Below the pieces are notes generated by a model that had not been told where the DNA came from, ran no database searches, and worked only from the letters and a program-made list of their open reading frames with translations. This document shows, piece after piece, positions 3,214-62,174 of a DNA stretch of 64,000 nt; the stretch's first letter is position 1, and the number at the start of each line of letters is the position of its first letter. Origin of the DNA: Eledone cirrhosa (Eukaryota); NCBI GenBank assembly GCA_964016885.1, contig OZ024743.1, positions 291,896,001 to 291,960,000 on the forward strand, in the 5' to 3' direction. Both the position numbers and the translations under genes were made by a program.

Positions 3214-6200
3214 TTACAGATATATACTCAGAGTCGGCCCATTCACTCGGGCCATTCTTGCTTCTCTCACCCATCTTTCAACAAAATGCAGGGAAGAGAG
3301 CACTTCCTTCTCTACTCTGATTTTCCTTTTCAAATGAAATTTGAAAAAGTCAATCAGAGCATCACCGAAGAGGTAAGTGCTCGTCTTCAGCCCTTTCAAA
3401 CGTGTCCACCATACTATCTCTTTCGCCATGGCCACCAGACAGATAAAAACTGCCTGCCCTTCCCGGCTAAAGGAGGAGGGCGGGGCAATCCTCACGATAG
3501 ACTCAGATGATAGCTGGATCCGTCCTAAACGCGACAGCAGGTGTTCGACATAAACCCACAAGTCAGCAATTTTCGGACACTGGACGAGTGCGTGCAGGAC
3601 GGTTTCGTCGCCCTGCGCGCATCTCGGACATGCCCGGCTGACGGCACCTCCATGCCTGTAGAGTTTATCCCGAACTGGCAAGGCTCCTCGGTAGCACTGC
3701 CAGGCCAGAGATTTCTGGAAGTTGTCCATAGGCCCTGGCCCGAAAGTTCTTCCGAAGAGATTGGCTAGTTGATTTTCGTCGACGCCTAGAGTTTCCCCAA
3801 GTACGTCGTCGCTCTTCCCCTCCACTAATCCTCTATAGAACGCCGAGGTGGAGTTTCCACCGATCACATTGCCCGATTGGTCGAGGGCTGTGAGCGCCTG
3901 AAGACATTCCAGTCTCCAGGCGCTCCCTCTCGGTCTTCGCTTGACCCAGGACTGCAGCTCCGTCAAGGAAACGAGCTGGGGAAAAACGCGTCTAGCAAAC
4001 GGCGACCACACCTGATCACCGTCGAGGAAGAGGTGGAGATGTCGTAGCCTGAGCGCGTGCCTGCGCATCATCAGCCACGGCATGCCCAGCCCTCCACGTA
4101 GCGGGTGTTGACAACAGATGGACCGCCTGACCATCGGAGCACGTCCCTTCCACAAAAAGCGAAAGAGCAAACGCTCCAGCGCAGTCAGGCGAGGCTTAGG
4201 ACAAGGTACGACGGTTAGGCGGTAGCAGATGACAGACGCGATGTACGCGTTAGCCACCTCCGCTCGACCTTTCAGGGATAGCTTCCTCTCCGCCCATTTC
4301 TGGGTGAGAGAAGCCACCCTGCTCGTCACCTCGTCCCAGTTTTTGTCCATCTGGAGGTCCGGACCGAACCAGACCCCTAGCAATTTAACCGGTCCGTCCG
4401 TCCAGCGCCCGACGACGCTGTTGGACGGCATGGACCTGCCTCTCCAGGTGCCGAGCTGCAGGCCCACTGACTTTTCCTGGTTGATCATTGCTCCTGTCAC
4501 CGCTTCGTATTCTCTTAGTGTAGTGCCGATCGCCTCGATGTGTTTGACGTTCGACACCACTACGGTGACATCGTCCGCATATGCTGACACGGATCTTCCG
4601 CATCCTAGTTCGCGCGGGACTCCCCTCAACGTCTCCAGTTTGTGCAGTAATGGCTCGAGAGTCAATACGTACAAGAGGGACGAGAGGGGACATCCTTGGC
4701 GGACCGAGCGCATGATGTTGAACGGTTCCGACAGGTGACCGTTCACTCTCACCACAGAGCAGATGTCGCTGTGCATGGCAGCGATCCAGCCTCTGAAGAC
4801 GGGCCCAAAGCCAGCCGCCCTCAGGACTGCCGCTAGGTAACGATGGTCGACCCTATCGAAAGCTTTCGACTGATCTAAATTGATCAAGGACCCACCCGTG
4901 CCAGGTTCCCTAGCTACCCTCTCTACGATGTATCGCATGAGGTGGAGGTTGTCGTGGATGGATCTGTCGGGAATGGCGCATGTCTGCGCCTCTCCCACCA
5001 GACCACCAACGACAAGCGCCAACCTCTTTGCTAGCACCTTGGCCAAAATCTTAAACTCTGTGTTTAGCAGAGTTATGGGCCGGAAATTGTCTATGTTATC
5101 CCCCTTGTTCGGATCCTTTCTCAGCAGTGCCACCGCTCCTCGGCTCACAGAACTGGGAATTCTCCCGTTCTGTTGCCAGTTGCAGTAGACGTCCGCCAAG
5201 AGGCCTCCGAACAAGTCTGGCATCTGTACGTAAAGTTCATAGGGCAGACCATCCAAACCAGGCGATTTACCCCTTGTGCAGCCAGTCATTGCCTCCCGTA
5301 CTTCAGCGGCTGTTATCGGCTTTTCGCAACACCTCGCCTCAGTGGCCGAGAGCCGCGGCAGTCCGTCGAGGTAGACACTAAAGTCCATCCCTCTACCCGG
5401 CCCCCCGCTGCCCCCGAACAGCTGAGCGAAGTGTCGCTGAAAAGCTTCACACATTTGCCCGGGATCGAGTAGCATGCGCCCGTCGTGGTCCACCAAAGAC
5501 CGGATCGTGGCTTTGTTGCCACGACGCGCCTCCGCCACTCGGGCCCATTGAACGGCTTTCGTCCCCTCGTGTCTGAGAGCACGCACCCTAGCTCTGACAA
5601 CGCAGCCTTCGTGCTTTGCATTGAAGAATTGGTCAAGGGCCAATTTCGCCGCAAGCACGTCGGTCGCAATGCCTTTGCTAAGCGCCTCGTCTAATTTTCT
5701 AACTAGTTCTCCCTCTGCTCTATTTTTCTCTATTGCTAAAGCCTTACTAAACCTAATCGATTCTATTCTAATCGCTCTTTTCAGAGCAAACCACCACTTG
5801 TTGTTGACGATGGCCCCCGTCAACGCCCGCTTAACTAGTTCGCTAATCCGGTCTCTGTTGCGCGCTGGTAAGGACGCGTTTAGCTTCCAGTAGCCGGGTC
5901 CTCGTCTATGAAGCCTATCTAAGTCAAGCACACAGATCACGAATTTGTGGTCCGTGTAGCTGACTATCTTGAATTGTGGACAGCCTATGCTAGACCTATC
6001 TATTTCCCTACAAAATACTCTATCTAGATATGATCTGGATGACCCTATGCGGTTTGTCCAAGTCCACATTGGCACATTCGGGAAATCCAATCGGTACCTG
6101 TCAGACAGTTCAAAACGCCTGAGCAGGTTGGTGAGGCTCTTGCACCCTCCACCCCTATCCGCTAATCCCACACAGTCCCAGCGTGCATCTAAGATCCCGT

Positions 6201-6627
6201 TCCAGTCGCCCACTAACACTAAAGAGCGGGACGTTCCAAGAAAGGTCTCCAGACGCCGGAAGAAATCAGGCCGCCCTGCTCCTGTCGGGGCATAGACGGC
6301 CACTAGCCTGAAAGCTTGCCCGTCTCCGCTGGTCACGTCCAGCACCACCAGCTTACCCTCTGGGTCCAGGAAGATGGCCCGTATGGCGAGATCCAAACCT
6401 CTCCGAAAAAGCACAGCAACTCCTCCACCCGATCCAGGACGGCTGGGAGATGCGTACACATCGTAGCCGCCGAAGATCGGTGCGAAGGCCCGTGCTTCGG
6501 AGATTCTGGTCTCGCTGATGGCCACTACATCTATGTTTAGTGACCTGAGGTCGTTGAGCAGGTGACCCTGCTTCCATGACGACCCCAAGCCACGCGCATT
6601 TATGCTGCCTATTCTGAGTGAGGTCAT
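3214..6627 (-). CDS. ORF2: APE endonuclease + reverse transcriptase + C-terminal zinc knuckle, 1137 aa
   Basis: EN motifs NARGL, SETR, GDWN, LDR, TDH; RT motifs KSPGLDG, NFRPITLLN, LDQSKAFDRV, VRQGCPLS, YADD; CPRC..ETVLHALVQC. L1/Tx1-type architecture. Confidence 0.96.
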   Translation of the reverse strand: MTSLRIGSINARGLGSSWKQGHLLNDLRSLNIDVVAISETRISEARAFAPIFGGYDVYASPSRPGSGGGVAVLFRRGLDLAIRAIFLDPEGKLVVLDVTSGDGQAFRLVAVYAPTGAGRPDFFRRLETFLGTSRSLVLVGDWNGILDARWDCVGLADRGGGCKSLTNLLRRFELSDRYRLDFPNVPMWTWTNRIGSSRSYLDRVFCREIDRSSIGCPQFKIVSYTDHKFVICVLDLDRLHRRGPGYWKLNASLPARNRDRISELVKRALTGAIVNNKWWFALKRAIRIESIRFSKALAIEKNRAEGELVRKLDEALSKGIATDVLAAKLALDQFFNAKHEGCVVRARVRALRHEGTKAVQWARVAEARRGNKATIRSLVDHDGRMLLDPGQMCEAFQRHFAQLFGGSGGPGRGMDFSVYLDGLPRLSATEARCCEKPITAAEVREAMTGCTRGKSPGLDGLPYELYVQMPDLFGGLLADVYCNWQQNGRIPSSVSRGAVALLRKDPNKGDNIDNFRPITLLNTEFKILAKVLAKRLALVVGGLVGEAQTCAIPDRSIHDNLHLMRYIVERVAREPGTGGSLINLDQSKAFDRVDHRYLAAVLRAAGFGPVFRGWIAAMHSDICSVVRVNGHLSEPFNIMRSVRQGCPLSSLLYVLTLEPLLHKLETLRGVPRELGCGRSVSAYADDVTVVVSNVKHIEAIGTTLREYEAVTGAMINQEKSVGLQLGTWRGRSMPSNSVVGRWTDGPVKLLGVWFGPDLQMDKNWDEVTSRVASLTQKWAERKLSLKGRAEVANAYIASVICYRLTVVPCPKPRLTALERLLFRFLWKGRAPMVRRSICCQHPLRGGLGMPWLMMRRHALRLRHLHLFLDGDQVWSPFARRVFPQLVSLTELQSWVKRRPRGSAWRLECLQALTALDQSGNVIGGNSTSAFYRGLVEGKSDDVLGETLGVDENQLANLFGRTFGPGPMDNFQKSLAWQCYRGALPVRDKLYRHGGAVSRACPRCAQGDETVLHALVQCPKIADLWVYVEHLLSRLGRIQLSSESIVRIAPPSSFSREGQAVFICLVAMAKEIVWWTRLKGLKTSTYLFGDALIDFFKFHLKRKIRVEKEVLSSLHFVERWVREARMARVNGPTLSIYL

Positions 6628-6662
6628 GTTTAAAATAGAGTGGAAAAGATGGGAAAGACCAC

Positions 6663-8756
6663 TTACCGTACTTTTGGTAGAGGAGGGATGGTTTTTACAT
6701 CCCTTTTCACTTGATCGTCTGGTGAAGGGACCGTTGAATCGTCCCTTCGGCTGGTCGTCGGCTCTTCTAAGAGAATGTCTGAATATACTCTTCGATTGAT
6801 GGTTCCTCCTAGGTCCCTGAAATCACCAACTGCGTTGGGGAATTTCGTTTTAATGTTTGTGTATTGTTTCTGTGCTATTTTTAGCAGTCTTATGTTAGTT
6901 GGCGTTTTGATTGGTGCTGGTATTATGTAGTCCTGTTGTGAAATGTCTGTGTGTTCAATTATGTAAGTCATTAGTTTCTTGTTGTGTGTGTTTATTGCCG
7001 TGCATTTGTTTTTCTGGGGGTGGGGTGTGGTTCTGCTATTTTCTTGTCGTTGTTGCTGGGTGTGTGTGTTTTGTTGTTGTGTTTGCGATGTTGGTGCTTG
7101 TGGTGGTGGTGTTGAAGGTGTTGTTGGCGGTGGGGTTGTCGCCGGTGGTGATGGTGGTGCTGGTGTGGGTGGTGATGGTGTTGGTGGTGTTGCTGCTGTG
7201 GGTCTCTTTGCAGTAGACTTTACCCTTTTCTCATTTCTTTCCTCCCTTTTCAAAGGCGACGATGCGCTGCTTCTGCGTTTGTGCCTTCTTACGACCTTTT
7301 GCCATCCCTCTCCCACCTCACACTCCATGTCTGATTCTGTAAGGTCGGGGAGGGGTACCAGCTCCACTCTTTCACTTGTTGTTGTTGGTGATGTTTGCAC
7401 TGGAGTCTCTGTTGCAGCTGCATTTGGTATTGCTGTTGTTGTTGTTAATATTTCCACTGCTGCTGCTGTCTTTGATTTCCGTGGAGTGGGTATGGGTGCC
7501 ACGGACCTATCGTTCCTGGTTGCCGCTTGTCCTGTTGCTGGTAGCCGTGGAGCCGGATTCGGAAGGAGGGGGGTTTTCTCCTTTCTCAGGGTCTTCTCGT
7601 TGCAGAAGGCCCTGAGGTGAGTCTTCGATCCACAGCGAAAGCATTTCGGGCGTTTGCCCTCAACACTTATGGGCAGTTGAGTGCCGTTATCGAAGTCTAT
7701 CACATCCGGGATAGCTTCGATGCACTCCTGGTTGGTTTGGATTAGCATCTCAATGGAGGAGCCGACCCAATCTTCTCTTACTTTTTTCTGTACTTGCAGT
7801 ACAGTTGTTTTGTCCTCGATTCCGATTAGGACAGACGCGGCCAGCCAAGAAGGGGTCATTCCGGGGGGGACGTGGGTCAGTTTGACCCTCACAATTTTTT
7901 GCCCGCAGTAGGAGGGCACCAACACCATTTCCTCGCTCCTTAGGGTCACTACTGATTGGGCCTTTGCCTCCTGGGGTGTGGCAAAAAGTACGTCTACGGT
8001 GGCATATTTTTTGCCTCGGGTGATGTGCGTTTTCCGCTGCCACACAGACCCCAAGGCTTTTTGTATTTGGGCCTCTGTGGCTCTTTCCACCCTACGGGAT
8101 TTTGTACTTACTGTACGGTACGTGACCGTACAGTGCTCTTGGGTTTTGAAAAATTTTTCCGCTGCCTTGCAGATTGCTCGGTGTCCGTTCTTTGTCACCA
8201 TCTTCTTCGCTTCCTCTAATTCCTCATTTGTTATGAGGATTGTTTCCAAGTTTTTCGCAATACCTGCAAATGAGATTGGTTTTTCTCTGCTGTTGTTGTT
8301 GTCGTCAGAGCTGCTGGTACTTTTGTTGTTGCTGCAGGTACTACGACTACTGCCTCCGCCGCTGTTGCTGTGGTTGTTGTTGGTGTTGCTGCTGCTAATG
8401 CTGTTGTTGTTTATGCTGCTGGTGATGCTGTTGCGGCTGCTACTGTTGTTTTCATTGTCACTGTTGCAGTTGTTATTACGGCTGCTACTGCTATTATTCC
8501 TGACGTCAGACGAATGAACTGGGTTTTCGTATTTCCCGCACACCTGTTTCGTCGCTGTCGTCGTCGTCGTGGAGAAACCTTGCACGCTTTGCACGAGACT
8601 TTTCTTTTCTTTCGTCACTTGCGAAAGAGAAGGGAGGGAGAGAGACACATTTAAAGAAGGGAGGGAGAGAGACAATCTTCTCTCTGCTGTAGTGATGATT
8701 GAGGAAGAAGACGGAATGAGTGGGAGTGACGTATGAAATTTCTTTTTCGTAGCCAT
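6663..8756 (-). CDS. ORF1, copy B (~697 aa from first ATG at 8756)
   Basis: Ser/Asn-rich N-terminus, core homologous to copy A ORF1, CFRCGSKTHLRAFC knuckle, WQKVVRRHKRR basic patch, conserved C-terminal block. Confidence 0.88.
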   Translation of the reverse strand: MATKKKFHTSLPLIPSSSSIITTAERRLSLSLPSLNVSLSLPSLSQVTKEKKSLVQSVQGFSTTTTTATKQVCGKYENPVHSSDVRNNSSSSRNNNCNSDNENNSSSRNSITSSINNNSISSSNTNNNHSNSGGGSSRSTCSNNKSTSSSDDNNNSREKPISFAGIAKNLETILITNEELEEAKKMVTKNGHRAICKAAEKFFKTQEHCTVTYRTVSTKSRRVERATEAQIQKALGSVWQRKTHITRGKKYATVDVLFATPQEAKAQSVVTLRSEEMVLVPSYCGQKIVRVKLTHVPPGMTPSWLAASVLIGIEDKTTVLQVQKKVREDWVGSSIEMLIQTNQECIEAIPDVIDFDNGTQLPISVEGKRPKCFRCGSKTHLRAFCNEKTLRKEKTPLLPNPAPRLPATGQAATRNDRSVAPIPTPRKSKTAAAVEILTTTTAIPNAAATETPVQTSPTTTSERVELVPLPDLTESDMECEVGEGWQKVVRRHKRRSSASSPLKREERNEKRVKSTAKRPTAATPPTPSPPTPAPPSPPATTPPPTTPSTPPPQAPTSQTQQQNTHTQQQRQENSRTTPHPQKNKCTAINTHNKKLMTYIIEHTDISQQDYIIPAPIKTPTNIRLLKIAQKQYTNIKTKFPNAVGDFRDLGGTINRRVYSDILLEEPTTSRRDDSTVPSPDDQVKRDVKTIPPLPKVR

Positions 8757-26020: not shown

Positions 26021-26050
<30 letters not shown>

Positions 26051-26056
<6 letters not shown>

Positions 26057-26456
26057 AAAGAATGGAGGTGTAACACACAAGTTATTATATATTGGTAAAC
26101 GGAATAGAAAATGCTGACAAATTGTTCACAGTTGAAAAATGGTTTAATTAGGAATAAAAGAGTATTAGTGATTGTATGGGTTAGTATTCAGTTGTGGTTT
26201 TAAGTTTTTAAGTTTTTACCGGTTGCGCATTTCTAAATGCTTTTCAAAAATAATTTTGAGATAGAGTGTCCGTGCTGTTTGCTCTGATCTGATTAGTTTT
26301 GGGAATTCTACCTGTTTTTATGTTAAAAAAATGGCTCCAGCGTTATTTTTGTGTTGTAAAAATGCTTGTGGTCAAAACAATTTTGATTGGTCGGTAGAGG
26401 TCATGTGAATGTAAAAAGTTGATTTTGCGCCAAGACTGTTTTTATGTTAAAATGTT
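26051..26456 (-). repeat. 3' pseudo-LTR of the PLE
   Basis: Matches 30866-31270; I saw only one substitution (AATGGAGG vs AATAGAGG). Confidence 0.9.
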
Positions 26457-26571
26457 AGAAAAGTGGCTCCAGCAAAGATTATGGTCAAAACAATTTTGAT
26501 TGGTCGGTAGAGGTCATGTGGATAAAAAATTGGTTTTGCGCCAAGATTGAGAAATGACTCTTTCACAACAA

Positions 26572-26617
<46 letters not shown>

Positions 26618-27021
26618 TAGTAGTAGTAAGGTATTCGATGCTGCGACAATAGCCACCAGCGATGTGTGTCAAATGGCTATTAAGATAAGTGTGTGTGTGT
26701 GTGTGTGTGTGTGTGCGTACATACACACAGCAGAGTCATTCGAAGGTCAAAAGATATTTTTCAGCTTTTGTCTTATACGGAGAAGTGCGCGTGTGTGTGT
26801 GTGTGTGTGTATAAGTCTCTTTGTATGTTGATGTACGCGTGTGTATGTGTCTGTGTATATATGTGTGTGTGTGTGTGTGTGCGTGTGTGGGTGGACCAGT
26901 ATTTTTTTCCCCCCCTGGTAAAATGGTGTACATTATTCGATTTTTTCAGTAAAATCGGTTCTCTTAATAGAACATCAACAATCTTAACAATAAAAGGTGT
27001 GAAATGATATTCACTATATAC

Positions 27022-27243: not shown

Positions 27244-29568
27244 TTAGGGAGAAGTGTTTAGACGGGGTCCGTATTTGTTAATGAAGTAAGATTCCTTGCT
27301 GATGCGCTGGGTGTGGGTGGCATTATCTTTAAATTTGTAGAGGGGAAAGATTCTGAAGTTGGGATGATTTTGGGCGGCGCAGGTATCAATGTGTTCACTC
27401 AGTGGTATTTTCCTGTATTCCCGTATTTTAATTTGGGATCTATGGACAGTCATGCGTTGGCGGAGGCTGTTTTTGGTCTGGCCTATGTATTGTTCTCGAC
27501 AACCTGAACAAGTTAATACATATATTAAATTTTCCGATGCACATGTGAAATTGTGTTTTACTATAAAACGTTGTCCATCTTTGAAATAGAATTCCGAACC
27601 CTCTATTAGGTTGATGCAAATGCCACAGTTGGGTCTATCGCATTTTTTTACTGTGGGTTTCGTTGTTGTGGTTGGCAGTACTTTGGCATGTGTTAAGATG
27701 TTTTTCATTGACTTGGATTGTCTTTTGCTTTTTATGAGATCGTGTGTTCGTAGAATTTGGTTCATTCTATGGTCCTTTTTCAATACAGGGATGTTCTGGA
27801 GGATGGTGTCAAAGGCCTCGTTGTTGAGGGGGTTGTGTGTGGAGATGTATGGAAGAGCTTTTAGTTTTGGTTGATTTACTTTAGGGTGTCTAAGGTCCTG
27901 GGTACTGAGTTTTAGGGCACGTTGGATTCCATTGTCAATTAGTGATGCAGGGTAGTCCCTGCCTATGAGTGTGTCCTTTAGTTCTTGTAGCCGTAAGTAG
28001 CAGATGTTTTTATTGGAGACTATAGTACAGATTCTCTTGGCTAAGTTGTAGGGAATATTAATTTTAACGTGTCTAGGGTGGCAAGAGTTGAAGGGGAGGT
28101 ATTGCTTGGAGTCTGTGGGCTTGTAGTATATGTCTGTTTCTATTTTTTTGTTATGGATCTTAATGAGGATGTCGAGGAAGGGGAGTTGTTGATGGCTGTA
28201 TTCCATTGTGAAGTTAATATTTGTGTTGAGTCCATTTATAAGGGTGTGAAATTCTTTAAGTTTTTCGATGTTTTCGTGCCAAAGGATGAAGCAGTCATCA
28301 AGATATCGCTTCCAGTTCCTTTCAATGTGTAAGTGGAGGGTGTTTCCAAATTTGTTTAGGACTTTAGTGTAGAGGGTGATTTCCAGGTATCCCATGACTA
28401 GGTTGGCATACGTAGGGGCTGTTTTCGTTCCCATAGCGGTCCCAGATTTCTGCCTGTAGGGTTTGTTATTGAAAACGAAGTAATTGTTCTCCAAGATAAA
28501 TTTGAGTCCCTCTATCACGAATTCTTTTTTGATGCGTTGTGGGAGTTCATTGTGGAAGTTATCCAGCCAGAATTGGATAGCTTCTATTCCTAGGTTGTGG
28601 GGGATGTTGGAGTATAGGTTGACTACATCGAACGTCACTAGTAGGGTTTGTTCAGAAAGTGGCATATTAGGGAGGTGATTGAGCATATCTAGGTCGTCCC
28701 TTATATAGCTTTTGATGTGCTTGAGGAAGGGTTTGAGAAGGGTATCAATGAAGTTGCTAAGACGGTGCGTTTCGCAAGCGGGGCCTGCTATTATAGGTCT
28801 TAATTTGAGATCATTGGGTGAGGGGACATTGATGACTATGTCTGTGGCTTCCTTGCATGCCTTACTGATTGATTCGCTTTTATGTACTTTAGGGATACCG
28901 TAGAAAAGGCTGGATTTACTTGTGAAGTCTGTGATGAAGCTGAATTCCTTGTTAGTGAGTCCTTCTTTGTATTGGTTGATTAGAGTTTTTAGGTTTCTCA
29001 TAATTTTCTGTTGATTGTAGTGTTCAGCCTTTTCGTAGTATGTTTCGTTTTCCAAAGTGGAGAGCGCTAAGTTGATATAGAATTCTGTCTCCATTAGGAC
29101 TACTGTACTCCCTTTATCAGCCTCTTTAATTGTAATGGTTCTGTCGGTTTTTAATCTATTTAATTCTTCCCATTCTTTCTTGTTGAGGTTTGGCTTGTGT
29201 TTTTGTCTGTGCAAGTGTTGGTAAGGGAAGTTTGTGATGTGTTCACAGAATTCGTCCAGGATTTTATTTCTACCTTTTGAAGGGGTGTAATTGCTTCTAT
29301 TTCTGGCTAATGATTCATCCTCATTGTACTGGTCGAATAGTTGTTCACTAAGTCGTAACTTTCTACAGAAGTCTGTGATGTCTTCCTTCATTTCATAGTA
29401 GTTAGGACGTAGTGGGGTCGGTGTGAATTTAAGACCTTTGGAGAGTAAGTTGATAAGGTTGGGTGTTGGTTCTGCACTAGTAAGATTGATAATTTTTATT
29501 ACTATCGGTTTCTCCTCCCTGTCTTGTGTTATTTTGTTTGCCTGTATCTGTGTGCTGTGTCTAAAAAA
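27244..29568 (-). CDS. PLE reverse transcriptase + GIY-YIG endonuclease (first ATG 29391; frame open and conserved further upstream)
   Basis: IINL..LLSKGLKFTPTP upstream of the ATG; ADKG, YGIPKVHK, LRPII, FDVVNLY, GTAMG, RYLDD, LPFLD, YYKPT; CDRPNCGIC linker; LIY..CSGC..YIGQT..R..H; RLN. Confidence 0.93.
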   Translation of the reverse strand, partial: FFRHSTQIQANKITQDREEKPIVIKIINLTSAEPTPNLINLLSKGLKFTPTPLRPNYYEMKEDITDFCRKLRLSEQLFDQYNEDESLARNRSNYTPSKGRNKILDEFCEHITNFPYQHLHRQKHKPNLNKKEWEELNRLKTDRTITIKEADKGSTVVLMETEFYINLALSTLENETYYEKAEHYNQQKIMRNLKTLINQYKEGLTNKEFSFITDFTSKSSLFYGIPKVHKSESISKACKEATDIVINVPSPNDLKLRPIIAGPACETHRLSNFIDTLLKPFLKHIKSYIRDDLDMLNHLPNMPLSEQTLLVTFDVVNLYSNIPHNLGIEAIQFWLDNFHNELPQRIKKEFVIEGLKFILENNYFVFNNKPYRQKSGTAMGTKTAPTYANLVMGYLEITLYTKVLNKFGNTLHLHIERNWKRYLDDCFILWHENIEKLKEFHTLINGLNTNINFTMEYSHQQLPFLDILIKIHNKKIETDIYYKPTDSKQYLPFNSCHPRHVKINIPYNLAKRICTIVSNKNICYLRLQELKDTLIGRDYPASLIDNGIQRALKLSTQDLRHPKVNQPKLKALPYISTHNPLNNEAFDTILQNIPVLKKDHRMNQILRTHDLIKSKRQSKSMKNILTHAKVLPTTTTKPTVKKCDRPNCGICINLIEGSEFYFKDGQRFIVKHNFTCASENLIYVLTCSGCREQYIGQTKNSLRQRMTVHRSQIKIREYRKIPLSEHIDTCAAQNHPNFRIFPLYKFKDNATHTQRISKESYFINKYGPRLNTSP

Positions 29569-30839
29569 TGGTTGGGGTAGAGGGGTTGTCTGCTGATGTT
29601 AAGTGGTCTCCTGTGCTTGTTATATTCCTTGTTGTTGTAAAATGTGGTTCGGGTTGGTGGTTGTAGATTGAATGGGGTGTTCCTGTACTGCGAGTATGGG
29701 TGTGTGTTTCTATGTGCCATGTTGTATTGTGGTGTTATAAGTGGCCTACGTTGTTGGTTGTATCGTGTGGTGTGGGTTTGTTGTGTATTGTGGAAGTGAG
29801 AGTTGAGAAAATGGTAATTACCTTGCTGTCCCCTTGAGGCGGGGAAGTTGTTGCATCTATCATGGCGGTGGTATCTTTTCCCTATGTTTGACGATGAGGA
29901 ATCCGCGTAGTAGTTGAGTGATTTGGTATGGTGTCTCCTTGAAGGGGGAAAGTTGTAAATGTCATTCTGGGGGAGATGATTTCTTGGGTTTTTGTTCCTT
30001 CTTATGGTAGCGAGGTTGGGAAGTTCATCTTCGGTGTGGTGCTTCCTTCTTCGTTTGTTTGAGGCTTGGGGGTTTGAGAAGTTGTTGTGCGGTTCAGTTA
30101 TGGGTTTTCCTATTTTTATGAACGGGTTATTGGAGGTGTAATCCGTTTGAAAAGTCGATTCATTGTGTAGGAACCAAGCGGCACTTTTTTCCCAGCGTTG
30201 AAGGGATTTCAGTTCTTCTCTGTTGCAGTCCCCTTTCCATAATTTGGAGATCTTCTCTACCTTGGGGCCTTCAGTTTTGTTGTTGATTTCCAGGAGGATC
30301 TCTTCATCGATGGTTTTGATTTTTTCCTCATTTGTCTGGGCCCTCAGTTTAAGAAGTTCAATTTCTGTCTTCATTTTTTCCAATGCCATTCTTTCCCTAA
30401 GGTGTCTTTGAGGTTCGGGTTCATTTGGAATGGACTTTATTTGTAGTTTACGGGGGAGAGTTAGAGGGGTTGAGTTAAGCCATTTTTCATATATCTCTGC
30501 TTTGTTGTGATTTTGTATCATCTTCCAGAATGAGAACTTTCTGTCTCTGAGGGATTTGTTCCATTTTGGAATTGTTCGAATTTTCATTTTGTGTGAATCA
30601 ATCTCACATGGTTCTTCGTTGGTTTTTCCTGGGTTGGTAGTAGTGAACATAGTTTGGATAGTATCGCAAAGGTTTTGGAGTTTGTCGCCGATTTCGGAGG
30701 GTTTGTATCCGGTGGCGGTTTCCTTATTTGTGGAGTCAAGTTTGTCGACCAGCAAAGATAGGTTGGTGTTGATTTTCTTGAGTTCCTGTAGGATCTCTTC
30801 ATTTGAGTTGATGAGGGTTGTATCCGTTTTTGTTGGCAT
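29529..30839 (-). CDS. PLE upstream ORF1, coiled-coil N-half and basic N/H/R-rich C-half (~436 aa from ATG 30839)
   Basis: Long intact ORF beginning just inside the 5' pLTR; heptad-like EEILQELKKINTNL and ALEKMKTEIELLKLR segments; overlaps the RT frame. Confidence 0.8.
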   Translation of the reverse strand: MPTKTDTTLINSNEEILQELKKINTNLSLLVDKLDSTNKETATGYKPSEIGDKLQNLCDTIQTMFTTTNPGKTNEEPCEIDSHKMKIRTIPKWNKSLRDRKFSFWKMIQNHNKAEIYEKWLNSTPLTLPRKLQIKSIPNEPEPQRHLRERMALEKMKTEIELLKLRAQTNEEKIKTIDEEILLEINNKTEGPKVEKISKLWKGDCNREELKSLQRWEKSAAWFLHNESTFQTDYTSNNPFIKIGKPITEPHNNFSNPQASNKRRRKHHTEDELPNLATIRRNKNPRNHLPQNDIYNFPPSRRHHTKSLNYYADSSSSNIGKRYHRHDRCNNFPASRGQQGNYHFLNSHFHNTQQTHTTRYNQQRRPLITPQYNMAHRNTHPYSQYRNTPFNLQPPTRTTFYNNKEYNKHRRPLNISRQPLYPNHFLDTAHRYRQTK

Positions 30840-30865
30840 TTTCTGTATCTCGTGTGAGGATATGA

Positions 30866-31270
30866 TAGTTAAAAGAATAGAGGTGTAACACACAAGTTAT
30901 TATATATTGGTAAACGGAATAGAAAATGCTGACAAATTGTTCACAGTTGAAAAATGGTTTAATTAGGAATAAAAGAGTATTAGTGATTGTATGGGTTAGT
31001 ATTCAGTTGTGGTTTTAAGTTTTTAAGTTTTTACCGGTTGCGCATTTCTAAATGCTTTTCAAAAATAATTTTGAGATAGAGTGTCCGTGCTGTTTGCTCT
31101 GATCTGATTAGTTTTGGGAATTCTACCTGTTTTTATGTTAAAAAAATGGCTCCAGCGTTATTTTTGTGTTGTAAAAATGCTTGTGGTCAAAACAATTTTG
31201 ATTGGTCGGTAGAGGTCATGTGAATGTAAAAAGTTGATTTTGCGCCAAGACTGTTTTTATGTTAAAATGT
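30866..31270 (-). repeat. 5' pseudo-LTR of the PLE
   Basis: Direct repeat of 26051-26456. Confidence 0.9.
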
Positions 31271-31304
31271 TATTGTCGCAGCATCGAATACCTTACTACT
31301 ACTA

Positions 31305-31372
<68 letters not shown>

Positions 31373-31855
31373 TTGTTGTGAAAGAGTCATTTCTCAATCT
31401 TGGCGCAAAACCAATTTTTTATCCACATGACCTCTACCGACCAATCAAAATTGTTTTGACCATAATCTTTGCTGGAGCCACTTTTCTAACATTTTAACAT
31501 AAAAACAGTCTTGGCGCAAAATCAACTTTTTACATTCACATGACCTCTACCGACCAATCAAAATTGTTTTGACCACAAGCATTTTTACAACACAAAAATA
31601 ACGCTGGAGCCATTTTTTTAACATAAAAACAGGTAGAATTCCCAAAACTAATCAGATCAGAGCAAACAGCACGGACACTCTATCTCAAAATTATTTTTGA
31701 AAAGCATTTAGAAATGCGCAACCGGTAAAAACTTAAAAACTTAAAACCACAACTGAATACTAACCCATACAATCACTAATACTCTTTTATTCCTAATTAA
31801 ACCATTTTTCAACTGTGAACAATTTGTCAGCATTTTCTATTCCGTTTACCAATAT
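31271..31855 (+). repeat. Inverted copy of the PLE 3' region
   Basis: Reverse complement of ~26087-26650; gives ~365-bp inverted arms with 30903-31270. Confidence 0.9.
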
Positions 31856-33934
31856 ATATATATATATATATATATATTTCTTAAAATAACAGATTAAAGT
31901 TTAAGCAAAGAATTGGTGTTTTCACCCTTAATAGAAAGTCTGAGATATTCTCTTCTTGCCCCCACGCCATTTCTAATTCTTACTTTTATTATAAACCCAA
32001 ACGTTCTAGTAGTACAAATTGTACCCATTAGCAGATATATTCCATTACTTATTTTTTAGTTTAGGTTCTTTTGTTTGCCAACATTATTGCTATCATCATT
32101 ATTACCATTGGATTTTGATGACTCTTTATTCTAGCTCTCATAATCATTTGGCTACTGTACCATATCTATGTTTTCACTATTACACCTTGTTAATATATAT
32201 AAGATTACGCACTTTACGCCATTTACTTTATTTTATTATTATCTTTATTTTTATTTTTATTATTAATTATATTTTTAATTTTATTTTTAATTTTATTCAG
32301 ATTCATCTTTGGATAACCCCTCCCCTCCCATCCCACATCCCCCATCCCCCCATGCGCACATAAACTTATTGTCAACCCCTCCAGATTGACTATGATTATA
32401 TTTAACCCCCCCCTCTTTTACGCTCCGTTCTATTATTTATTATAGTATATCGACTATATTTTATGCCCCTTTGCACCCTCCATATATTTCTTCAATTCTG
32501 TCCCTATTAGCCTACCTTAATTCTACTTAAGTCAGTTTTTTAGATATCGTTATGTATATGATAGTAAAACATTTCATTCCTTTTTGTAAACATTTGTAAC
32601 GAAACATTAAAGTTTATAAACTTTAATGACTTAAACTACAGCTAATATTATACTACCTTATTGGATAGTTTTAATATTTTTAATATTAATTTATCAAATA
32701 GGGTTTTGAGTCAATTAAAGTGATTGTTTTCCTTAGATTTTACCTAACTACTTAACCGCATGTGAGACCTAAATGTGTATATATTTGTTTTTGTTTTGTA
32801 ATTTCCGGTTGATTATATTTATTTATTTTATTCTATATTTTATATTCTATTTACTATTTACTGTCTGGCTTTACTTACACATCCACATATGTCTGTCTAC
32901 TAACCTTGTAATTATAAGTATTTATATATTATTTTATGTCAATTTATTTTATATAATATATTATAAAATATTGTATTGTAATATTGATCCTTATTACTTA
33001 CTGTTCATTATATGTAACATTATGATATTTAAACTTTATATATCATGTAAGATGTCTGTATTTTTGTAATATTGTAATATTGATCCTTATTACTGTTCAT
33101 TATGTGTAACATTATGATATTTAGACTTTACATATCATGTAAGATGTCTGTATATTTTTTTCTGTACTATCATAATTTTTTCTGTACCATCATAGTGTTT
33201 TTTGAGTATTGTATAATTTATTTTTCCTCATTTACTCTGTAACCCAGTATGAATCGATTTGTATATATTGTTTATTGTAAATGTTAGTACATTGTTAACA
33301 TATTATCATTATATTATTATTGTAACATCTATATTGTTTGTGTAAATTAACCGGGGATTATCTATTATATTATATTGAATTATATAATGTTATTGTTTAT
33401 TATTTATTATATGTGTCTCTTGTAATTATATCATATTATTGCCTCATGTATATTGGGTAGATGTATTGGTATTATTATTATTTTCACTCTTATCATGCTT
33501 ATTTTTATATTCAAACTTCTAATAAGGCTTAATTTGTGTAGTTGAACATAGATGTGCGTATTGTTGTATGTGTGTGTGTGTGTGTGTGTGCGCACATATA
33601 TACATGTATATATTGTACCTTTTGATTTTTAATTGTAATTTTAATGTTGGTAAAGGTATATTATTATAATGTATTATGTTATATTACATTGTGTTATATA
33701 TAATTCCTGCTCTATATAACCACATTTGTTTAGCTTTAGGTTAGTTGCTTTGGACTATATTTGTAATATGGTTCTTAATGTTATATACATCCTTAGTTAT
33801 TCTTATTATATATTTTTATTATTTTTATTTTTATTTTTATTATATATTTTTGCAAGACTTTAGTGTATGTACACTCCATATTCTTCGGAGCTTCCGGCTT
33901 GTATCTGCCGATATTACTTCTTGTTGTTTTGATT

Positions 33935-34762: not shown

Positions 34763-34960
34763 TGATGAGCAGGCAGGCTTTTGTCGGTGCTGGAACACAG
34801 TCAATGAGATTAAGCTGACCAATGACATCGAAAACAGCTTTGAAAAGGTCCAGAAGGCTGTCTCTAACTTGGTCGACTTTTCTGCAGAGTATGAGAGTGT
34901 GTGATATCAGGGTTTAACTCTGAAAGTCACTAAAATCAATTCAAGACCACCAGATTGTGC
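34763..34960 (+). pseudogene. Short non-LTR RT fragment (APE-type LINE)
   Basis: Translates DEQAGF..NT..KLTNDIENSF..LVDFSAEYESV*YQGL, a decayed QAGFR/VDL..AYD motif. Confidence 0.55.
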
Positions 34961-37900
34961 GATACATTTGCAACATCCAACTCTGAAAGTCGCTACAGCT
35001 CGCCATGCTACTAGACTTCCTAGCAGCCAGGTCGAACAGCGCCTTGAAACAACTATGCCTGAAAGATATTTGACACCACCTGTACCATCTAAATCTACCT
35101 CGAATGCTGGGGAAAACACTATCGATAATAATAATAATCGAAGAAATTTGACACCACATGTACCATCCGAGTCTACCTCGACTGTTGTGGAAAATACTAT
35201 CGATAATGATAATAATGAAAAGTATAAACAATTGAAATTTTCCCTCAACGAAATCTTCCAGAGAGAAATTGATTTATGTATAAATATCTCGCTTGCTGAA
35301 CGTGTTAAAACGACAATGTTTAATAAAAAAACAACAACAAATAATGAAATATTACTTGTTATTGACGAAATAGGGGATGAATATTTACGACGGATAAAAA
35401 CCCCAAAATTTTGGCAAATCAACACCTATTTATATGCCCTAGCAACGACAGTGAATCATTATCTTGGTGATAGCAGAGATATTAACAAGAACAGAACACG
35501 GCCAAAAATACCATCATATATAAATAAAATAGAAAAACATAGGATAAGTGACAATGCTCCTTACATGCAAACAAACATAAAAAACCTCACTCTTCAACAA
35601 CAAAGAGTGAAAAATAAAATAGAGACGATGTTTGGTAACAGTAGAACCAGAACTCTCGAATATAAGCTGATCACTCTCAAACAAGAATTGAGAGCTGTTA
35701 GCGAAACACACCGATACCTGAAGAAGGTAGATGAGAGAAAAGTTCTTAATAAAAGATTCAGACGAAACCAAACATCAGTCTATAGAGATATGAATGGCAA
35801 AATAATAGGTGTCACTGAGGCCCTATCCCAGAAAGACATAGATTCCTTTTGGAGCAAAATATGGGGTGAAAAGAAAAATTTCAACAAGGATGCAGTGTGG
35901 CTAAGAGAAATCCGAAAGAACTATTGCTCCTACACTACAACAAAAACATACGAAATATGTGAGGGTACCCTTGCGACTGTGATACGAAAACTCCAAGATA
36001 AGGAAACACCAGGAAGATACATGATTGTCGGCTACTGGTACAAAGAATTGATATTTTATCGGAGGTATCTTACTGACTTCCACCAACCAGTTCTTAAGGG
36101 AGATATACTTATATCAGAATGGTTGACATTAGCACAAAGATTACTGGTCCCCAAGAACAAAGACACCCACTTGGAAAAAAACTACCAACCCATTGCATGC
36201 CCGAACCTGATGTATAAGATGTATACAGCCTGCCTGAACATATTCCTCCAAGATCACTGTAAAAATAATAACATCATCACAGATGAACAAGCAGCTGCAA
36301 GGAAATGGGTTGAACAACATCTAATCAACAAAACTGCGATGTCGGGGGCGCGACAACTTAGGAGGAATATGGGTACAGTCTGGCTGGACTACAGGAAAGC
36401 TTTCGATTCTATTCCCCACTCTTGGATGATAGAGACCCTCCAACTTGCTAAAGTCCCAGACATTATTGTCAGAGACATAGAGAGGCTGTCTTCTTCTTGG
36501 GCTACTATCCTAAGGTTAAAGACAGAGAGGGAGGACTCTATTTTCACTGATAAAATAAAATATTGCAGGGGTATATTTCAGGGGGACAGTGTCTTTGTGA
36601 TATTATTCATCTTGTCATTAAACCCCTTGTCCTTTATGCTCAAGAAATGTGAGGGATACATCATTGGCTCACAGGAGGACAGAAATAGGAACCTAACCCA
36701 TAATTCATTGGTGGACGATCTGAATCTCTATGCCAAGAACATGGATGCGATGAAGAAAAATCTTGACCTGGTTACAACGTTCTCAAAGGATATAGGAATG
36801 GATTTTGGGCAAGATAAATGCTCATACATAACTGTAAAGCGGGGAAACCCAATCTAGCGACATTTTCATCAATGGCCTAACTGTTTCACCGATATCTGAT
36901 GGGGACTGCTACAGATACTTGGGGATAGATGAGAACAAATCCTATAATGGCATCTGTAATAAGGAACGCGCAATCAGGGAATACTACACCCGATTAAGAA
37001 AGATCTGGTCATCGGAAATCTCTGGGCAAAACAAAACAGTGGCTTACAATGTGTTTGCTGTGCCTGTCCTAACACCAACGTTTTGAATACTCAATTGGAA
37101 GATAGACAACATCCGAGCAGTTGATGTTGGAACTCGAAAATTACTAAACAACACCGGAAACTTCCACATCAAGAGTGACATAGACCGCCTTTACTTGAAA
37201 CGTAAGCAGGGAGGCAGAGGCCTAACATCAGTCCAGACAACATTTGAATGTCGCATCATATCTCTCCGACAACATCTACGAAACTCGAATCGTAGGAGCC
37301 CGTTTCTCGAGCAAGTCTATCTGCATGAAACAGATAAGATTATGAGAACTGGGAAGGAACTGCTCGAGAGATATTCCCTGTGTGATAATCATAAACTCAC
37401 ACCCAGGGATTTCGCTCAGCAGTATCGCAGTGAGTCCATGGATGAAAAACTGCATGCTTATCAGCAAACAATCATGCATGGTTATGTTGCCAGGGTGCTC
37501 CAGGGTGAGAGTAATACAGATAAAGAAAGTAGTCTATCTTGGACCAACAACCGTTATATTGGCTCCCACTTTATTGACTCCCACAAGAACATGAAATTAA
37601 CACGAAATACCTGATTCACAAAAGATATAGGGATGCAGGCAAAACACCTAGATGTGATAACAAGTATAGACTTTGCAGAACTAACATCGAGGATATCACC
37701 CATGTCATCAGCTGTCCAAAGATGTCAAGGCGGTACTATCTACCTATGAGGCATGATGTAGTGGCCAAAACACTGTATCATGCAATTCGTAAAATAGATA
37801 GCCCCGATAATAAACACATTAAAAGCTACAGCAATGTGGAAGACATCCATGTACATAATATGAAAGATTACTGGTGGAATGTTCCAGTAAAAACCCCAAT

Positions 37901-43031: not shown

Positions 43032-43074
<43 letters not shown>

Positions 43075-43079
<5 letters not shown>

Positions 43080-44665
43080 GTTAATATAAATTAATATATT
43101 TGATAAACACAAATACCAACATATTAATGTTTGTATTGTAAATGACCAAGTTAGCTAGATTGAAATATACTAATAATAATATTACAGTTTGCCTATCTTG
43201 ACTTAAGATAATAAATCAACAAAAACAAATCGTATTGGCAATGGCCGTGGTGCTTGGACAAATTTAAATTTCAAAATCAAACCTGTTCCGTAGACAGGTT
43301 TAAACCTTAAAATCGAAATATGTTTCGAATAATGAAAAAGTGGAAGAAATACCGCATTTTGATCTCCTCAGCAAGCACTATGAAAATTGGTATGTTCCAC
43401 TTCAAAATATTTAGAAAGAATATTTAGCGCACGAGGTAATTTCACGCCGCGGTTATCCAGTGTCTAGCTAGTCTCATACTCGTGCTGCTAGAAATAACAG
43501 CCGTTTGTATGGAGCTAAATTCAGCTCAAAGAAGGAGCAGTGATAAATCAATAATAATGAGTTCAAATCTCAGGGAGTCTTTTACAATGAAATTATTCAA
43601 AGAAAGAGTATTTCTGAGCCGTGTAATACAGGTTAATATGAATTAATATATTTGATAAACACAAATACCAACATATTCATGTTTGTATTGTAAATGACCA
43701 AGTTAGCTAGATTGAAATATATTAATAATAATATTACAGTTTGCCTATCTTGACTTAAGATAATAAATCAACAAAAACAAATCGTATTGGCAATGACCGT
43801 GGTGCTTGGACAAATTTAAATTTCAAAATCAAACCTGTTCCGTAGACAGGTTTAAACCTTAAAATCGAAATATGTTTCGAATAATGAAAAAGTGGAAGAA
43901 ATACGGCCTTTTGATCTCCTCAGCAAGCACTATAAAAATTGGTATGTTCCACTTCAAAATATTTAGAAAGAATGTTTAGCGCACGAGGTAATTTCACGCG
44001 GTTATCCAATGTCTAGCTAGTCTCATACTCGTGCTGCTAGAAATAACAGCCGTTTGTATGGGGCTAAATTCAGCTCAACGAAGGAGCAGTGATAAATCAA
44101 TAATAATGAGTTCAAATCTCAGGCAGTCTTTTACAATGAAATAGCTCAAAGAAAGAGTATTTCTGAGCCGTGTAATACAGGTTAATATGAATTAATATAT
44201 TTGATAAACACAAATTCCAACATATTGATGTTTGTATTTTAAATGACCAAGTTAGCTAGATTGAAATATACTAATAATAATATTACAGTTTGCCTATCTT
44301 GACTTAAGATAATAAATCAGCAAAAACAAATCATATTGGCAAATGCCGTGGTGCTTGGACAAATTTAAATGTCAAAATCAAACCTGTTCCGTAGACAGGT
44401 TTAAACCTTAAAATCGAAATATGTTTCGAAAAATGAAAAAGTGGAAGAAATACCGCATTTTGATCTCCTCAGCAAGCACTATAAAAATTGGTATGTTCCA
44501 CTTCAAAATATTTAGAAAGACTGTTTAGCGCACGAGGTAATTTATTATTGATTTATCACTGCTCCTTCGTTGAGCTGAATTTAGCCCCATACAAACGGCT
44601 GTTATTTCTAGCAGCACAAGTATGAGACTAGCTAGACACTGGATAACCGCGTGAAATTACCTCGT
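43075..44665. repeat. ~550-bp tandem repeat (~2.7 units) ending in an inverted segment
   Basis: Units start at ~43075, ~43627, ~44176; 44541-44665 is the reverse complement of ~43983-44105. Confidence 0.9.
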
Positions 44666-48802: not shown

Positions 48803-49149
48803 GCGGCGATGAATTAGTTTAGCAAATAAATAAATAAATATATAGACAGACTGAATAAAAAATGGCGTAGACATACAACACAACAGGAGGAAAAAAATAT
48901 AACACCACTGACGATGTTGCAGATGTGCAACGAAAGATTTATGTAAATTATGTAAACTATATATATGTGTTTGTGTCTATATTGTATCTGTATTATTTTT
49001 GACCGTCGGTCAGTCAATGGCAACATTGAGGACCGAGTAAGTTAGATCGCAGATATAAAAGACAGCGAGAAGTGAAAACCAACCAAACAGTGAGTGTGTT
49101 CTGTTATTAATTCTGGCAATATTACGCAAATATGACCCTCCCCAAGTAT

Positions 49150-49154
<5 letters not shown>
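48803..49154 (+). mobile_element. Non-coding TA-flanked repeat with short 5' inversion (unedited relative of 60571-61731)
   Basis: Homologous to 61335-61675; first 21 nt are the reverse complement of the family 3' end (61711-61731). Related pieces at ~40935-41040 and ~55997-56050. Confidence 0.8.
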
Positions 49155-49211
<57 letters not shown>

Positions 49212-49213
<2 letters not shown>

Positions 49214-49420
49214 AAGGCGGGTAAAATTCCCGAGATCCATGGATGAGTTCTCTCCAGCGGTCTCTGTCCCTCATTTTCGCTGCCATATCCTGCATCTCCA
49301 ACAGACCAGTGTCTGTCCTCAGGGCATCAACATATGTTAACCTTGGTCTTCCTCTTCCAGTGTGTCCATGTAGGGGCTCCCAAAGGTGCACTGAGTGCAA
49401 TGTCAACTCTGGATGTATTA
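49212..49420 (-). pseudogene. RTE-type LINE ORF C-terminal fragment
   Basis: LWEPLHGHTGRGRPRLTYVDALRTDTG..MRDRDRWRELI. Confidence 0.7.
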
Positions 49421-60492: not shown

Positions 60493-60570
<78 letters not shown>

Positions 60571-60575
<5 letters not shown>

Positions 60576-61106
60576 ATACTTGGGGAGGGTCATATTTGCG
60601 TAATATTGCCAGAATTAATAACAGAACACACTCACTGTTTGGTTGGTTTTCGCTTCCCGCTGTCTTTTATATCTGCGATCTAACTTACTCGGTCCTCAGT
60701 GTTGCCATTGACTGACCGACGGTCGGGGATGATACACATGCAATGTAGACACAGACACGTATGTGTGGTTTGCATAGTTTGCATGAATCTTTCGTTGCAC
60801 ATCTGCGGCATCGTCAGTGGTGTTATATTTTTTTTTCCTCCTGTTGTGTTGTGTGTCTGCGCCATTTTTTGTTCGGTCTCTCTATATGTTTATTTATTTG
60901 TTTGCTTGTTTGTTTGTTTTATTATGTCTTCTTTGCGCATGCGTTTGCGTGTGTGTGTGGTGTTGTGTGTGCTGTGTGACTGGTGTGTGTAGTGGAACTA
61001 TATATGTATATATGTGTATGTATATGTGTGTGTATAGGTATATATGTATATATATATATATATGTGTATATATATATATGTGTATATGTGTGTATATGTG
61101 TATATG

Positions 61107-61137
<31 letters not shown>

Positions 61138-61731
61138 GCATATGTATATATGCATGTATATGCATATATATGTGTGTGCATATGTGTGTATGAACATATG
61201 TGTATATACGTGTATATGTGCATATGTATATATGCATGTGTGGTTCCACTATACACGCTAGTCACGCAGCACACACAGCACTGTACACACACGCAAGCGC
61301 ATGCGCGGGGAGGACAGGTTGAAATAGACAAACGGGCAGATGGGTGAATGAATGTATAGACGGACTGAATAAGAGATGGCGTGGACGTGCAACACAGCGG
61401 AAGGAAGGAAAAATGATATAACACCACTGACGATGTTGCGGATGTGCAGCGAATGATTTATGTAAATTGTGTGAACTATATATGTGTGTTTGTGTTAATA
61501 TTGTATCTGTATCATTTTTGACCGTCGGTCAGTCAATGGCAACATTGAGGACCGAGTAAGTTAGATCGCAGATATAAAAGACAGCGAGAAGCGAAAACCA
61601 ACCAAACAGTGAGTGTGTTCTGTTATTAATTCTGGCAATATTACGCAAACATGACCCTCCCCAAGTATAATAATATCTGTTTCGACACACGATTTCATAT
61701 AAAAAACCTCGCTAAACTAATTCATCGCCGC
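60571..61731 (+). repeat. ~1.1-kb imperfect palindrome with clustered A>G substitutions
   Basis: 60571-~60990 is the reverse complement of ~61240-61675; most arm-to-arm mismatches are G opposite T on the + strand. Confidence 0.9.
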
Positions 61732-61788
61732 TATATATATATATATATATAATATAAGATCAAAAGATGGTTAAAGGAGTTCAATATA

Positions 61789-61855
61789 TTTTATTATGCG
61801 CATTTCAAAAACAAACATCATCAAACAATAATATTTGTGTTTTCATCAGATAAAA
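61789..61855 (-). ncRNA. Minimal hammerhead ribozyme (left arm of palindrome)
   Basis: Mirror image of 61985-62051. Confidence 0.72.
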
Positions 61856-61984
61856 CAGGAGAACATGATATGAAGGCTAAAATAACACTTGTTGATAGTG
61901 CAGTTTTAAATCAACATATCATATGTTGATTTAAAACTGCACTATCAACAAGTGTTTTTTTAGCCTTCATATCATGTTCTCCTG

Positions 61985-62051
61985 TTTTATCTGATGAAAA
62001 CACAAATATTATTGTTTGATGATGTTTGTTTTTGAAATGCGCATAATAAAA
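61985..62051 (+). ncRNA. Minimal hammerhead ribozyme (right arm of palindrome)
   Basis: TTTTAT-CTGATGA-AAACA..TGTTTTT-GAAA-TGCGCA-TA-ATAAAA. Confidence 0.75.
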
Positions 62052-62174
62052 TATATTGAACTCCTTTAACCATCTTTTGATCTTATATTATGCATACTCC
62101 AGTCCCACAAACTGTAGAGTGCTTCTTATCCGATATCTGCATTGCTTTATTGTACTACAATAAAACTCACCTCC

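Follow-up and report, generated by a model that had tools for sequence, protein, structure and literature searches.

A 64,000-nucleotide (nt) stretch of the Eledone cirrhosa genome (contig OZ024743.1, positions 291,896,001 to 291,960,000; hereafter the window) carries a Penelope-like retrotransposon whose reverse transcriptase (RT), joined to a GIY-YIG endonuclease, lies in the −1 frame relative to a preceding open reading frame (ORF1), the two frames overlapping at an in-phase T TTT TTA heptamer. The best reading of this layout, and one that we hold to be very probable, is that programmed −1 frameshifting on the heptamer makes the RT. Specifically, ribosomes would slip one base back on U UUU UUA to produce an ORF1–RT–endonuclease fusion, and the majority would stop and release ORF1, by analogy an abundant RNA-packaging partner. 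In families where the ORF1 stop lies 10 codons past the slippery site, as it does in the window, the trigger of the slip may be a collision with another ribosome that is terminating at that stop 33 nt downstream—a roadblock that would replace the usual pseudoknot, such that RT output would rise with ribosome load on ORF1. Taken as a whole (i.e., layout, −1 slip and possible collision trigger), the explanation is probable; its collision component is tentative, and we rate it at somewhat less than an even chance.

The ORF1/RT Junction

ORF1 (436 amino acids [aa]; 29529..30839, minus strand; ATG at 30839, TAA at 29531-29529) reads N-H-F-L-D over the heptamer at 29562..29568 (minus strand). The RT–endonuclease frame (27244..29598, minus strand; 784 codons stop to stop) opens 10 codons ahead of the heptamer, and its first ATG, at 29391, stands 59 codons from the first Phe codon. 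That ATG is past the conserved IINL and GLKF motifs at the RT start (KIINL begins at 29496), i.e., downstream of IINL and LLSKGLKFTPTP. A preliminary description of this DNA had reported the phased heptamer, the ATG-free opening of the RT frame and the late position of the ATG, and all three agree with the sequence; it had also called that ATG annotated, and here only the position stands, as no annotation exists and the codon is merely the first ATG. The heptamer is the sole run of six or more T (T6 or longer) in the 3,622-nt sense coding region, and in the window’s family no ATG, CTG, GTG or TTG occurs in the RT frame between the heptamer and the ORF1 stop. Canonical −1 frameshifting takes place at an X XXY YYZ heptamer that lies in phase where two conserved frames overlap, and the heptamer here is so placed. 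U UUU UUA is the −1 site of HIV-1 gag-pol and of alphavirus, with which the element shares heptamer, phase and the order of structural protein upstream and enzyme downstream; unlike these, it has no stem-loop 3′ of the site and is neither a long terminal repeat (LTR) element nor a virus.

Fixation within the Family

A DNA search of the 3.0-Gb source genome returned 1,526 candidates, of which 40 were scored and the 30 best retrieved, and all 30 of these best matches have the junction in common. A further search by flanks with a variable middle, gave 390 matches; the first 100 listed, tallied by eye, comprised 88 with T6, 4 with T7 (in frame), 5 one base short and 3 substituted. A control A6 run in ORF1 was longer in 4 and shorter in 1 among 100 listed of 236. 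The in-frame +1 variants thus match the homopolymer background, and the two-frame state is normal for the family. The four T7 copies carry differing other variants. Among copies chosen by ORF1 similarity, T6 was present in 19 of the 20 that reach the junction, and 18 of these have the stop at 10 codons. The element belongs to the endonuclease-bearing Penelope-like retrotransposons, has two overlapping frames, and is abundant, young and recently multiplied.

These counts bear on two other accounts of the offset. One is that a single-ORF element was broken by a one-base deletion or by an assembly error, an account in line with the single ORF of canonical elements (PMC8557442; here and below, statements taken from cited papers refer to the available portions of their text) and with the long open RT frame found upstream in most relatives outside the window’s clade. 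Yet the break recurs at one and the same motif in hundreds of copies and in 13 families, and no relative among 106 RT matches is longer than 935 aa (limit 1,372 aa). Five independent sets of sequencing contigs contain no indel at the junction at a frequency of at least 1% and no joint there, a result that says nothing on expression. Longer ORF1 fusions were absent among 7,995 candidates, a weak test. Copy counts, the DNA conservation across 12 families and the ORF1 protein comparison described below rule out a broken copy or assembly error, to which we leave a vanishingly small probability. The second account is that RNA polymerase slips on T6 and adds a U, giving in-frame transcripts. T7 copies (4 among the 100 listed) could be read in this way, but the control A6 run gains a base at an equal rate, and polymerase slippage would work in any phase, yet both the phase and the seventh base are conserved; we consider it highly improbable.

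Conservation across the Clade

Metagenome contigs, the source genome and contigs binned with prokaryotic genomes (likely host DNA) supplied the RT relatives. Clustering at 85% reduced the 109 loci that have the start motif and 280 or more open codons to 51 clusters. The 48 loci L106-L153, which carry an animal-type Penelope-like RT in prokaryotic genome bins, are themselves a likely case of host DNA contamination. A quick RT tree with midpoint root places the window in a 12-cluster clade (Shimodaira–Hasegawa-like approximate likelihood ratio test [SH-aLRT] support of 100). Of the 12 clade clusters, 11 have an in-phase T6 ahead of the RT start motif, vs 1 of 39 outside (Fisher p 3e-9, uncorrected for kinship); the twelfth, L036, whose upstream DNA spans 172 nt, carries A AAA AAC in phase instead. 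Within the source-genome clusters T6 occurs in 10/11 (B), 13/19 (C), 11/18 (D) and 4/4 (E) copies, the remainder being 5′-truncated or decayed.

Adding L038, which was left off the tree for its broken RT, gives 12 DNA-resolved families with RTs 30–73% identical, and all 12 have an in-phase T TTT TT(A/G) in the overlap (10 T6A, 2 T6G). In every one the RT frame opens 0–20 codons before the heptamer and ORF1 ends 1–31 codons past it, and in 11/12 the stretch before the RT start motif is free of ATG. A sixth source-genome family (RT about 70% identical) keeps heptamer, 10 codons and TAA-C in 6/6 copies. RT-frame stops number 96 in 1,200 codons upstream vs 0 in 354 codons from heptamer to start motif, which argues for the heptamer as the point of entry into the RT frame; 205 of those 354 stop-free codons precede the ORF1 stop or the start motif. 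Named relatives are limited to bivalve gene models; over the ORF1 part these read F-L-D or F-L-E or, in the RT frame, F-F-R. Family fixation and clade-wide conservation lend support to the predicted gag-pol-like −1 frameshift in a GIY-YIG element that the preliminary description had proposed from one copy.

Several observations weigh against the frameshift reading. Copies with ORF1 and RT in one frame, which the preliminary description had named, for young copies, as speaking against it, do occur, as in-frame single copies (L186-L189, L211, L165, L195) and proteins (P0053, P0060); they are sporadic, at the control-homopolymer rate, and so do not overturn the reading. Two of the 12 families carry T TTT TTG, which is not a classic slippery site, and family C has an ATG ahead of the RT start motif. 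Among 106 database RT relatives, at least 37, counted by eye, have their called start immediately ahead of the motif (gene callers accept GTG and TTG), and here as in family C separate initiation may supplement frameshifting. At the protein level, the Phe-Leu expected from the heptamer is missing in 26 of 108 ORF1 homologues.

As a replacement for frameshifting, separate synthesis would require ribosomes to re-initiate past the ORF1 stop, or to start internally on an AUG or a near-cognate codon, with the T-run as a binding signal. AUG-independent re-initiation is known for L1 ORF2, and the in-frame ATG of family C, the RT-frame NTG-G that an ORF1 Trp codon yields in families B, C, D, L031, L032 and L042, and a fixed motif-to-stop distance, which suits termination–reinitiation, all fit it. 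However, separate initiation needs no open RT frame in the overlap, where we count 0 stops in 205 codons vs 8% upstream (p 4e-8); the window’s family has none of the four start codons there, and phase is kept at all spacings. We judge this route unlikely. As an observation in its own right, a Trp codon near the ORF1 end gives an RT-frame ATG, GTG or CTG followed by G in L156, L166, L201, L031, L032 and L042, and Trp follows Phe-Leu in 20/82 ORF1 homologues—a possible secondary start or peptide motif that is absent from the window’s family.

The ORF1 Protein Family

ORF1 comprises a conserved all-helical domain (about residues 1-245) and a low-complexity tail rich in N, R, H, P and T. A structure model from a 9-row alignment consists entirely of long helices (mean predicted local distance difference test [pLDDT] 78, predicted template modeling score [pTM] 0.59), and heptad patterns fall at residues 13-40 and 153-180; the coiled coil of the preliminary description is plausible on these grounds, though not proven. 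No Pfam match was significant, the Atlas gave no match, and no Foldseek match (PDB, viral) reached E 0.001 or better. The viral contigs searched contained no RT relative. By analogy with gag and with the ORF1 of long interspersed nuclear elements, we infer an RNA-packaging partner with a basic disordered tail.

A profile built on nine ORF1 domains matched 1,235 clusters at 50% identity; of the 149 new matches listed, 108 with a tail of at least 60 aa were used and 41 short-tailed ones dropped. The comparison is at the protein level only, and some of these sequences may be truncated where a contig ends or may derive from decayed copies. Phe-Leu occurs within the last 45 aa of 82/108 listed homologues vs 5/96 in the preceding 45 (shuffle maximum 20). 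None of Q, E, K, M and W, the residues that have no T-ending codon, ever stands directly ahead of Phe-Leu (0/82; 19% of tail residues, p 3e-8), which points to a constraint on a nucleotide run starting one base before Phe. In P0140, P0152, P0173 and P0257, Phe-Phe replaces Phe-Leu near the ORF1 end, possibly as U UUU UUU/C variants of the site.

The same alignments bear on whether TTTTTTAG is instead a splice acceptor joining an upstream exon to the RT frame, a caveat that the preliminary description had raised and that sequence comparison does not sustain. The AG is present in 9/12 families, the 14 nt upstream are 71% pyrimidine in the window, and introns occur in Penelope-like elements (PMC8557442). 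Yet the AG is missing in 3/12 heptamer-keeping families: family E—young, multi-copy and of the source genome—reads T6-A-A-C (32/32 matches), and L045 and L107 read T6-G-T, so what is conserved is not an acceptor. The codon of the next residue cannot start with G in 24/82 proteins, upstream pyrimidine is only 21–57% in the other 11 families, and an acceptor would leave ORF1 phase unconstrained. Two genomic matches that have a base other than T at −3 reflect point mutation rather than spliced copies, a weak point as these elements retain introns. All told, splicing at the heptamer is very unlikely. In five contigs of a related clade (L052, L054, L058, L061, L072), a pyrimidine tract and CAG stand right before the RT start motif and there is no slippery site; this suggests that an intron may there make the join for which the window’s clade frameshifts.

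RNA Structure and Stop Spacing

A stem-loop or pseudoknot 5–9 nt downstream, the usual stimulator, is lacking in the window: folding z is +0.1 over 60 nt and −1.1 over 100 nt, in keeping with the absence of an obvious hairpin noted in the preliminary description, and a crude search, which covers local pairing only, found no local pseudoknot. Nor is a 3′ hairpin or pseudoknot conserved, z falling below −2 in 1/12 families (60 nt) and 2/8 (100 nt). Only L035, with its ORF1 stop 1 codon past the heptamer, folds strongly at the usual spacing (L035:915-975), its hairpin 8 nt downstream (z −4.5) being a classic stimulator.

Between Phe-Leu and the ORF1 stop there are 10 codons in 25 of the 82 homologues, 1 in 5, 2–9 in none and 11–40 in 52. 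The window element has 10 sense codons, such that slippery Leu codon and stop are 33 nt apart, A-site to A-site, and its stop TAA followed by C (29528..29531, minus strand) is the candidate roadblock site. Across the 25 ten-codon homologues the ten-mers are 9% identical on average and the tails range from 80 to 181 aa. A C at +4 follows the ORF1 stop in 3/4 DNA-resolved 10-codon families and 0/9 others. In disome profiling, ribosomes were seen to queue at stop codons with a period of 11 codons (33 nt) and with a tilt to +4 C (10.1101/710491), and in Escherichia coli reporters a stop-stalled ribosome promoted −1 slips of the trailing ribosome, with a peak at a 9-codon spacer (PMC6815119). As the 33-nt spacing equals that of published stop-codon queues, the terminating ribosome may be the roadblock. 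The preliminary description had overlooked both the clade-wide extent of the site and this conserved distance, and the latter may explain the missing hairpin.

The E. coli reporters resemble the window element in having a slippery heptamer, no RNA structure and a stop one ribosome length downstream; they differ in being engineered and bacterial with a 9-codon peak, where the present case is natural, eukaryotic and predicted at 10 codons (PMC6815119). In SARS-CoV-2 a 0-frame stop 5 codons away is proposed to let the pseudoknot refold, and there lower ribosome load helps, the reverse of the collision prediction (PMC8168617).

The case for collision is limited on several sides. On an ORF1 tree (FastTree, 90 domains), a single clade of 34 members accounts for 23/26 ten-codon cases (8 changes), so kinship inflates the count; that clade has long end branches, and 3 ten-codon cases lie elsewhere. 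The window ORF1 itself sits among relatives with 19–26 codon spacing, and the 1-codon cases form one clade with L035. Spacing is longer in 52/82, so collision is not general, and the multi-copy source-genome families B–E have 19–31 codons (23 in E) and no 3′ structure. The longer spacings show no 11-codon periodicity (13/42 within 1 of 21 or 32, ~11.5 expected). Gene model P0003 (5 residues) and one decayed copy fall in the 2–9 gap, for which a geometric-null p value was set aside because it ignores kinship.

Much of this suits a −1 frameshift with an incidental stop spacing, in which the slip would depend on how slippery U6A is by itself, on a pause caused by the nascent peptide, on protein binding or on RNA contact over a long range. 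U6A slips at a low rate without any stimulator, families B–E are abundant at 19–31 codons, the majority of spacings are longer and the 10-codon state clusters on the ORF1 tree; Pro in the last two residues (8/25 vs 2/52; p 0.07 vs local Pro content) hints at a peptide effect. Left unexplained are the sharp 10-codon peak over long branches and unrelated sequence and the empty 2–9 interval. We put incidental spacing at just under an even chance. Collision with the terminating ribosome, for families with 10-codon spacing only, is the trigger that we tentatively propose. It is possible, at somewhat less than an even chance, that a large animal Penelope-like clade thus provides a natural structure-free −1 frameshift with a terminating ribosome as roadblock 33 nt from the slippery codon.

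Element Architecture and Known Relatives

All parts of the element but one lie on the minus strand. The RT core (28243..28806; Pfam RVT_1, residues 265-452, E 4e-7) is followed by a Cx4CxxC zinc-finger-like linker (27616..27642; motif as defined in PMC8557442) and, at the C terminus, by a GIY-YIG endonuclease (27259..27528; Pfam, E 2e-6) with two Cys between its GIY-like and YIG motifs. Both Pfam matches exceed the cut-off. The GxKF and DKG motifs, named like the two Cys in PMC8557442, are present in the translation. A 3′ pseudo-LTR (26046..26651) ends in a (TA)n run; a direct partial pseudo-LTR (30860..31272; 99.5% identity to 26046-26457) lies immediately upstream of ORF1, and an inverted copy (31329..31862, plus strand; 99.8% complementary to 26083-26615) lies on the 5′ side. 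Such direct and inverted pseudo-LTRs in partial tandem are typical of endonuclease-bearing Penelope-like elements; the single ORF also typical of them is not found, 12/12 families having two overlapping frames. The endonuclease sets the element apart from Athena/Terminon, whose RT ORF lacks one. A Cx2-5CxxC linker, found at 27642-27616, characterizes Neptune and is also known in Nematis and Naiad. We saw no Rfam match to a hammerhead ribozyme beyond microsatellite noise and no core motif in the window, although minimal hammerheads can escape detection; 3′ of family E (L224, about 4105-4150) there is a hammerhead-core-like motif.

We call the element Neptune-like on its motifs. RT and GIY-YIG with two internal Cys, the linker, GxKF/DKG, direct and inverted pseudo-LTRs and (TA)n insertion are all shared with Neptune-type elements. 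Unlike these, which are described as single-ORF (PMC8557442, PMC11167929, PMC4209133), the window element has an ORF1 in the 400–450 aa range joined by an in-phase heptamer, and no hammerhead was detected in this copy. The preliminary description’s remark that endonuclease-bearing elements are usually given one ORF agrees with PMC8557442. One fish Neptune carries an ORF1 that is short and does not overlap (PMC12602865), and PMC5408684 mentions esterases in connection with Neptune-like elements.

Within the window, a head-to-tail array of three to four related non-LTR retrotransposons (186-21000, minus strand; about 5.6-6.8 kb, 72-97% alike) has an ORF1 with a CCHC knuckle in each unit and one intact endonuclease–RT ORF of 1,202 codons (3214-6822). 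A 650-codon open frame at 34905-36857 (plus strand) resembles a decayed non-LTR reverse transcriptase, and a unit of about 550 bp stands in three tandem copies, 97-98% identical, at 43074-44474. Inverted repeat pairs of 176-324 nt lie at 48891-49214, 60511-60842, 61402-61676 and 61744-62096, one being a near-perfect palindrome with 1 nt between arms.

Frameshifted ORF1s have a precedent among Penelope-like elements, and the one drawn in the published figure discussed next is presumably that of Athena/Terminon; Athena lacks an endonuclease and targets telomeres. The legend of Fig. 1 in PMC8557442 describes an ORF1 separable by a frameshift with a pseudoknot and names no clade. The present element is like those in PMC8557442 in that a coiled-coil ORF1 (a plausible one here) is cut off from the RT by a frameshift or by an intron at a conserved place, and unlike them in that their frameshift has a pseudoknot. 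The available portions of PMC8557442, PMC3846280, PMC6431247, PMC12602865, PMC5408684, PMC5718144, PMC4209133, PMC11167929, PMC7998251, PMC8168617 and 10.64898/2026.07.22.740005 describe no slippery site in a GIY-YIG element. A search of PMC7643828 gave no match. A wider literature search found no report of a slippery site in a GIY-YIG element, and none tying a retrotransposon to queues behind a terminating ribosome; it did not extend to Repbase or to the principal papers on Athena and Neptune, and an earlier mention of the two-ORF layout is possible.

Implications

If the frameshift is real, a large endonuclease-bearing Penelope-like group (1,235 ORF1 clusters at 50% identity) would have gag-pol-like expression, together with a family of ORF1 proteins that match nothing in Pfam, in the Atlas or by fold. 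RT-only annotations would begin at the wrong place, and this would matter for the in vitro rebuilding of transposition. If the stop-spacing model also holds, these elements would represent natural eukaryotic collision-driven frameshifting, otherwise found, in the available literature, only in engineered bacterial reporters, and the clade would offer natural spacing variants of 1, 10 and 11-40 codons.

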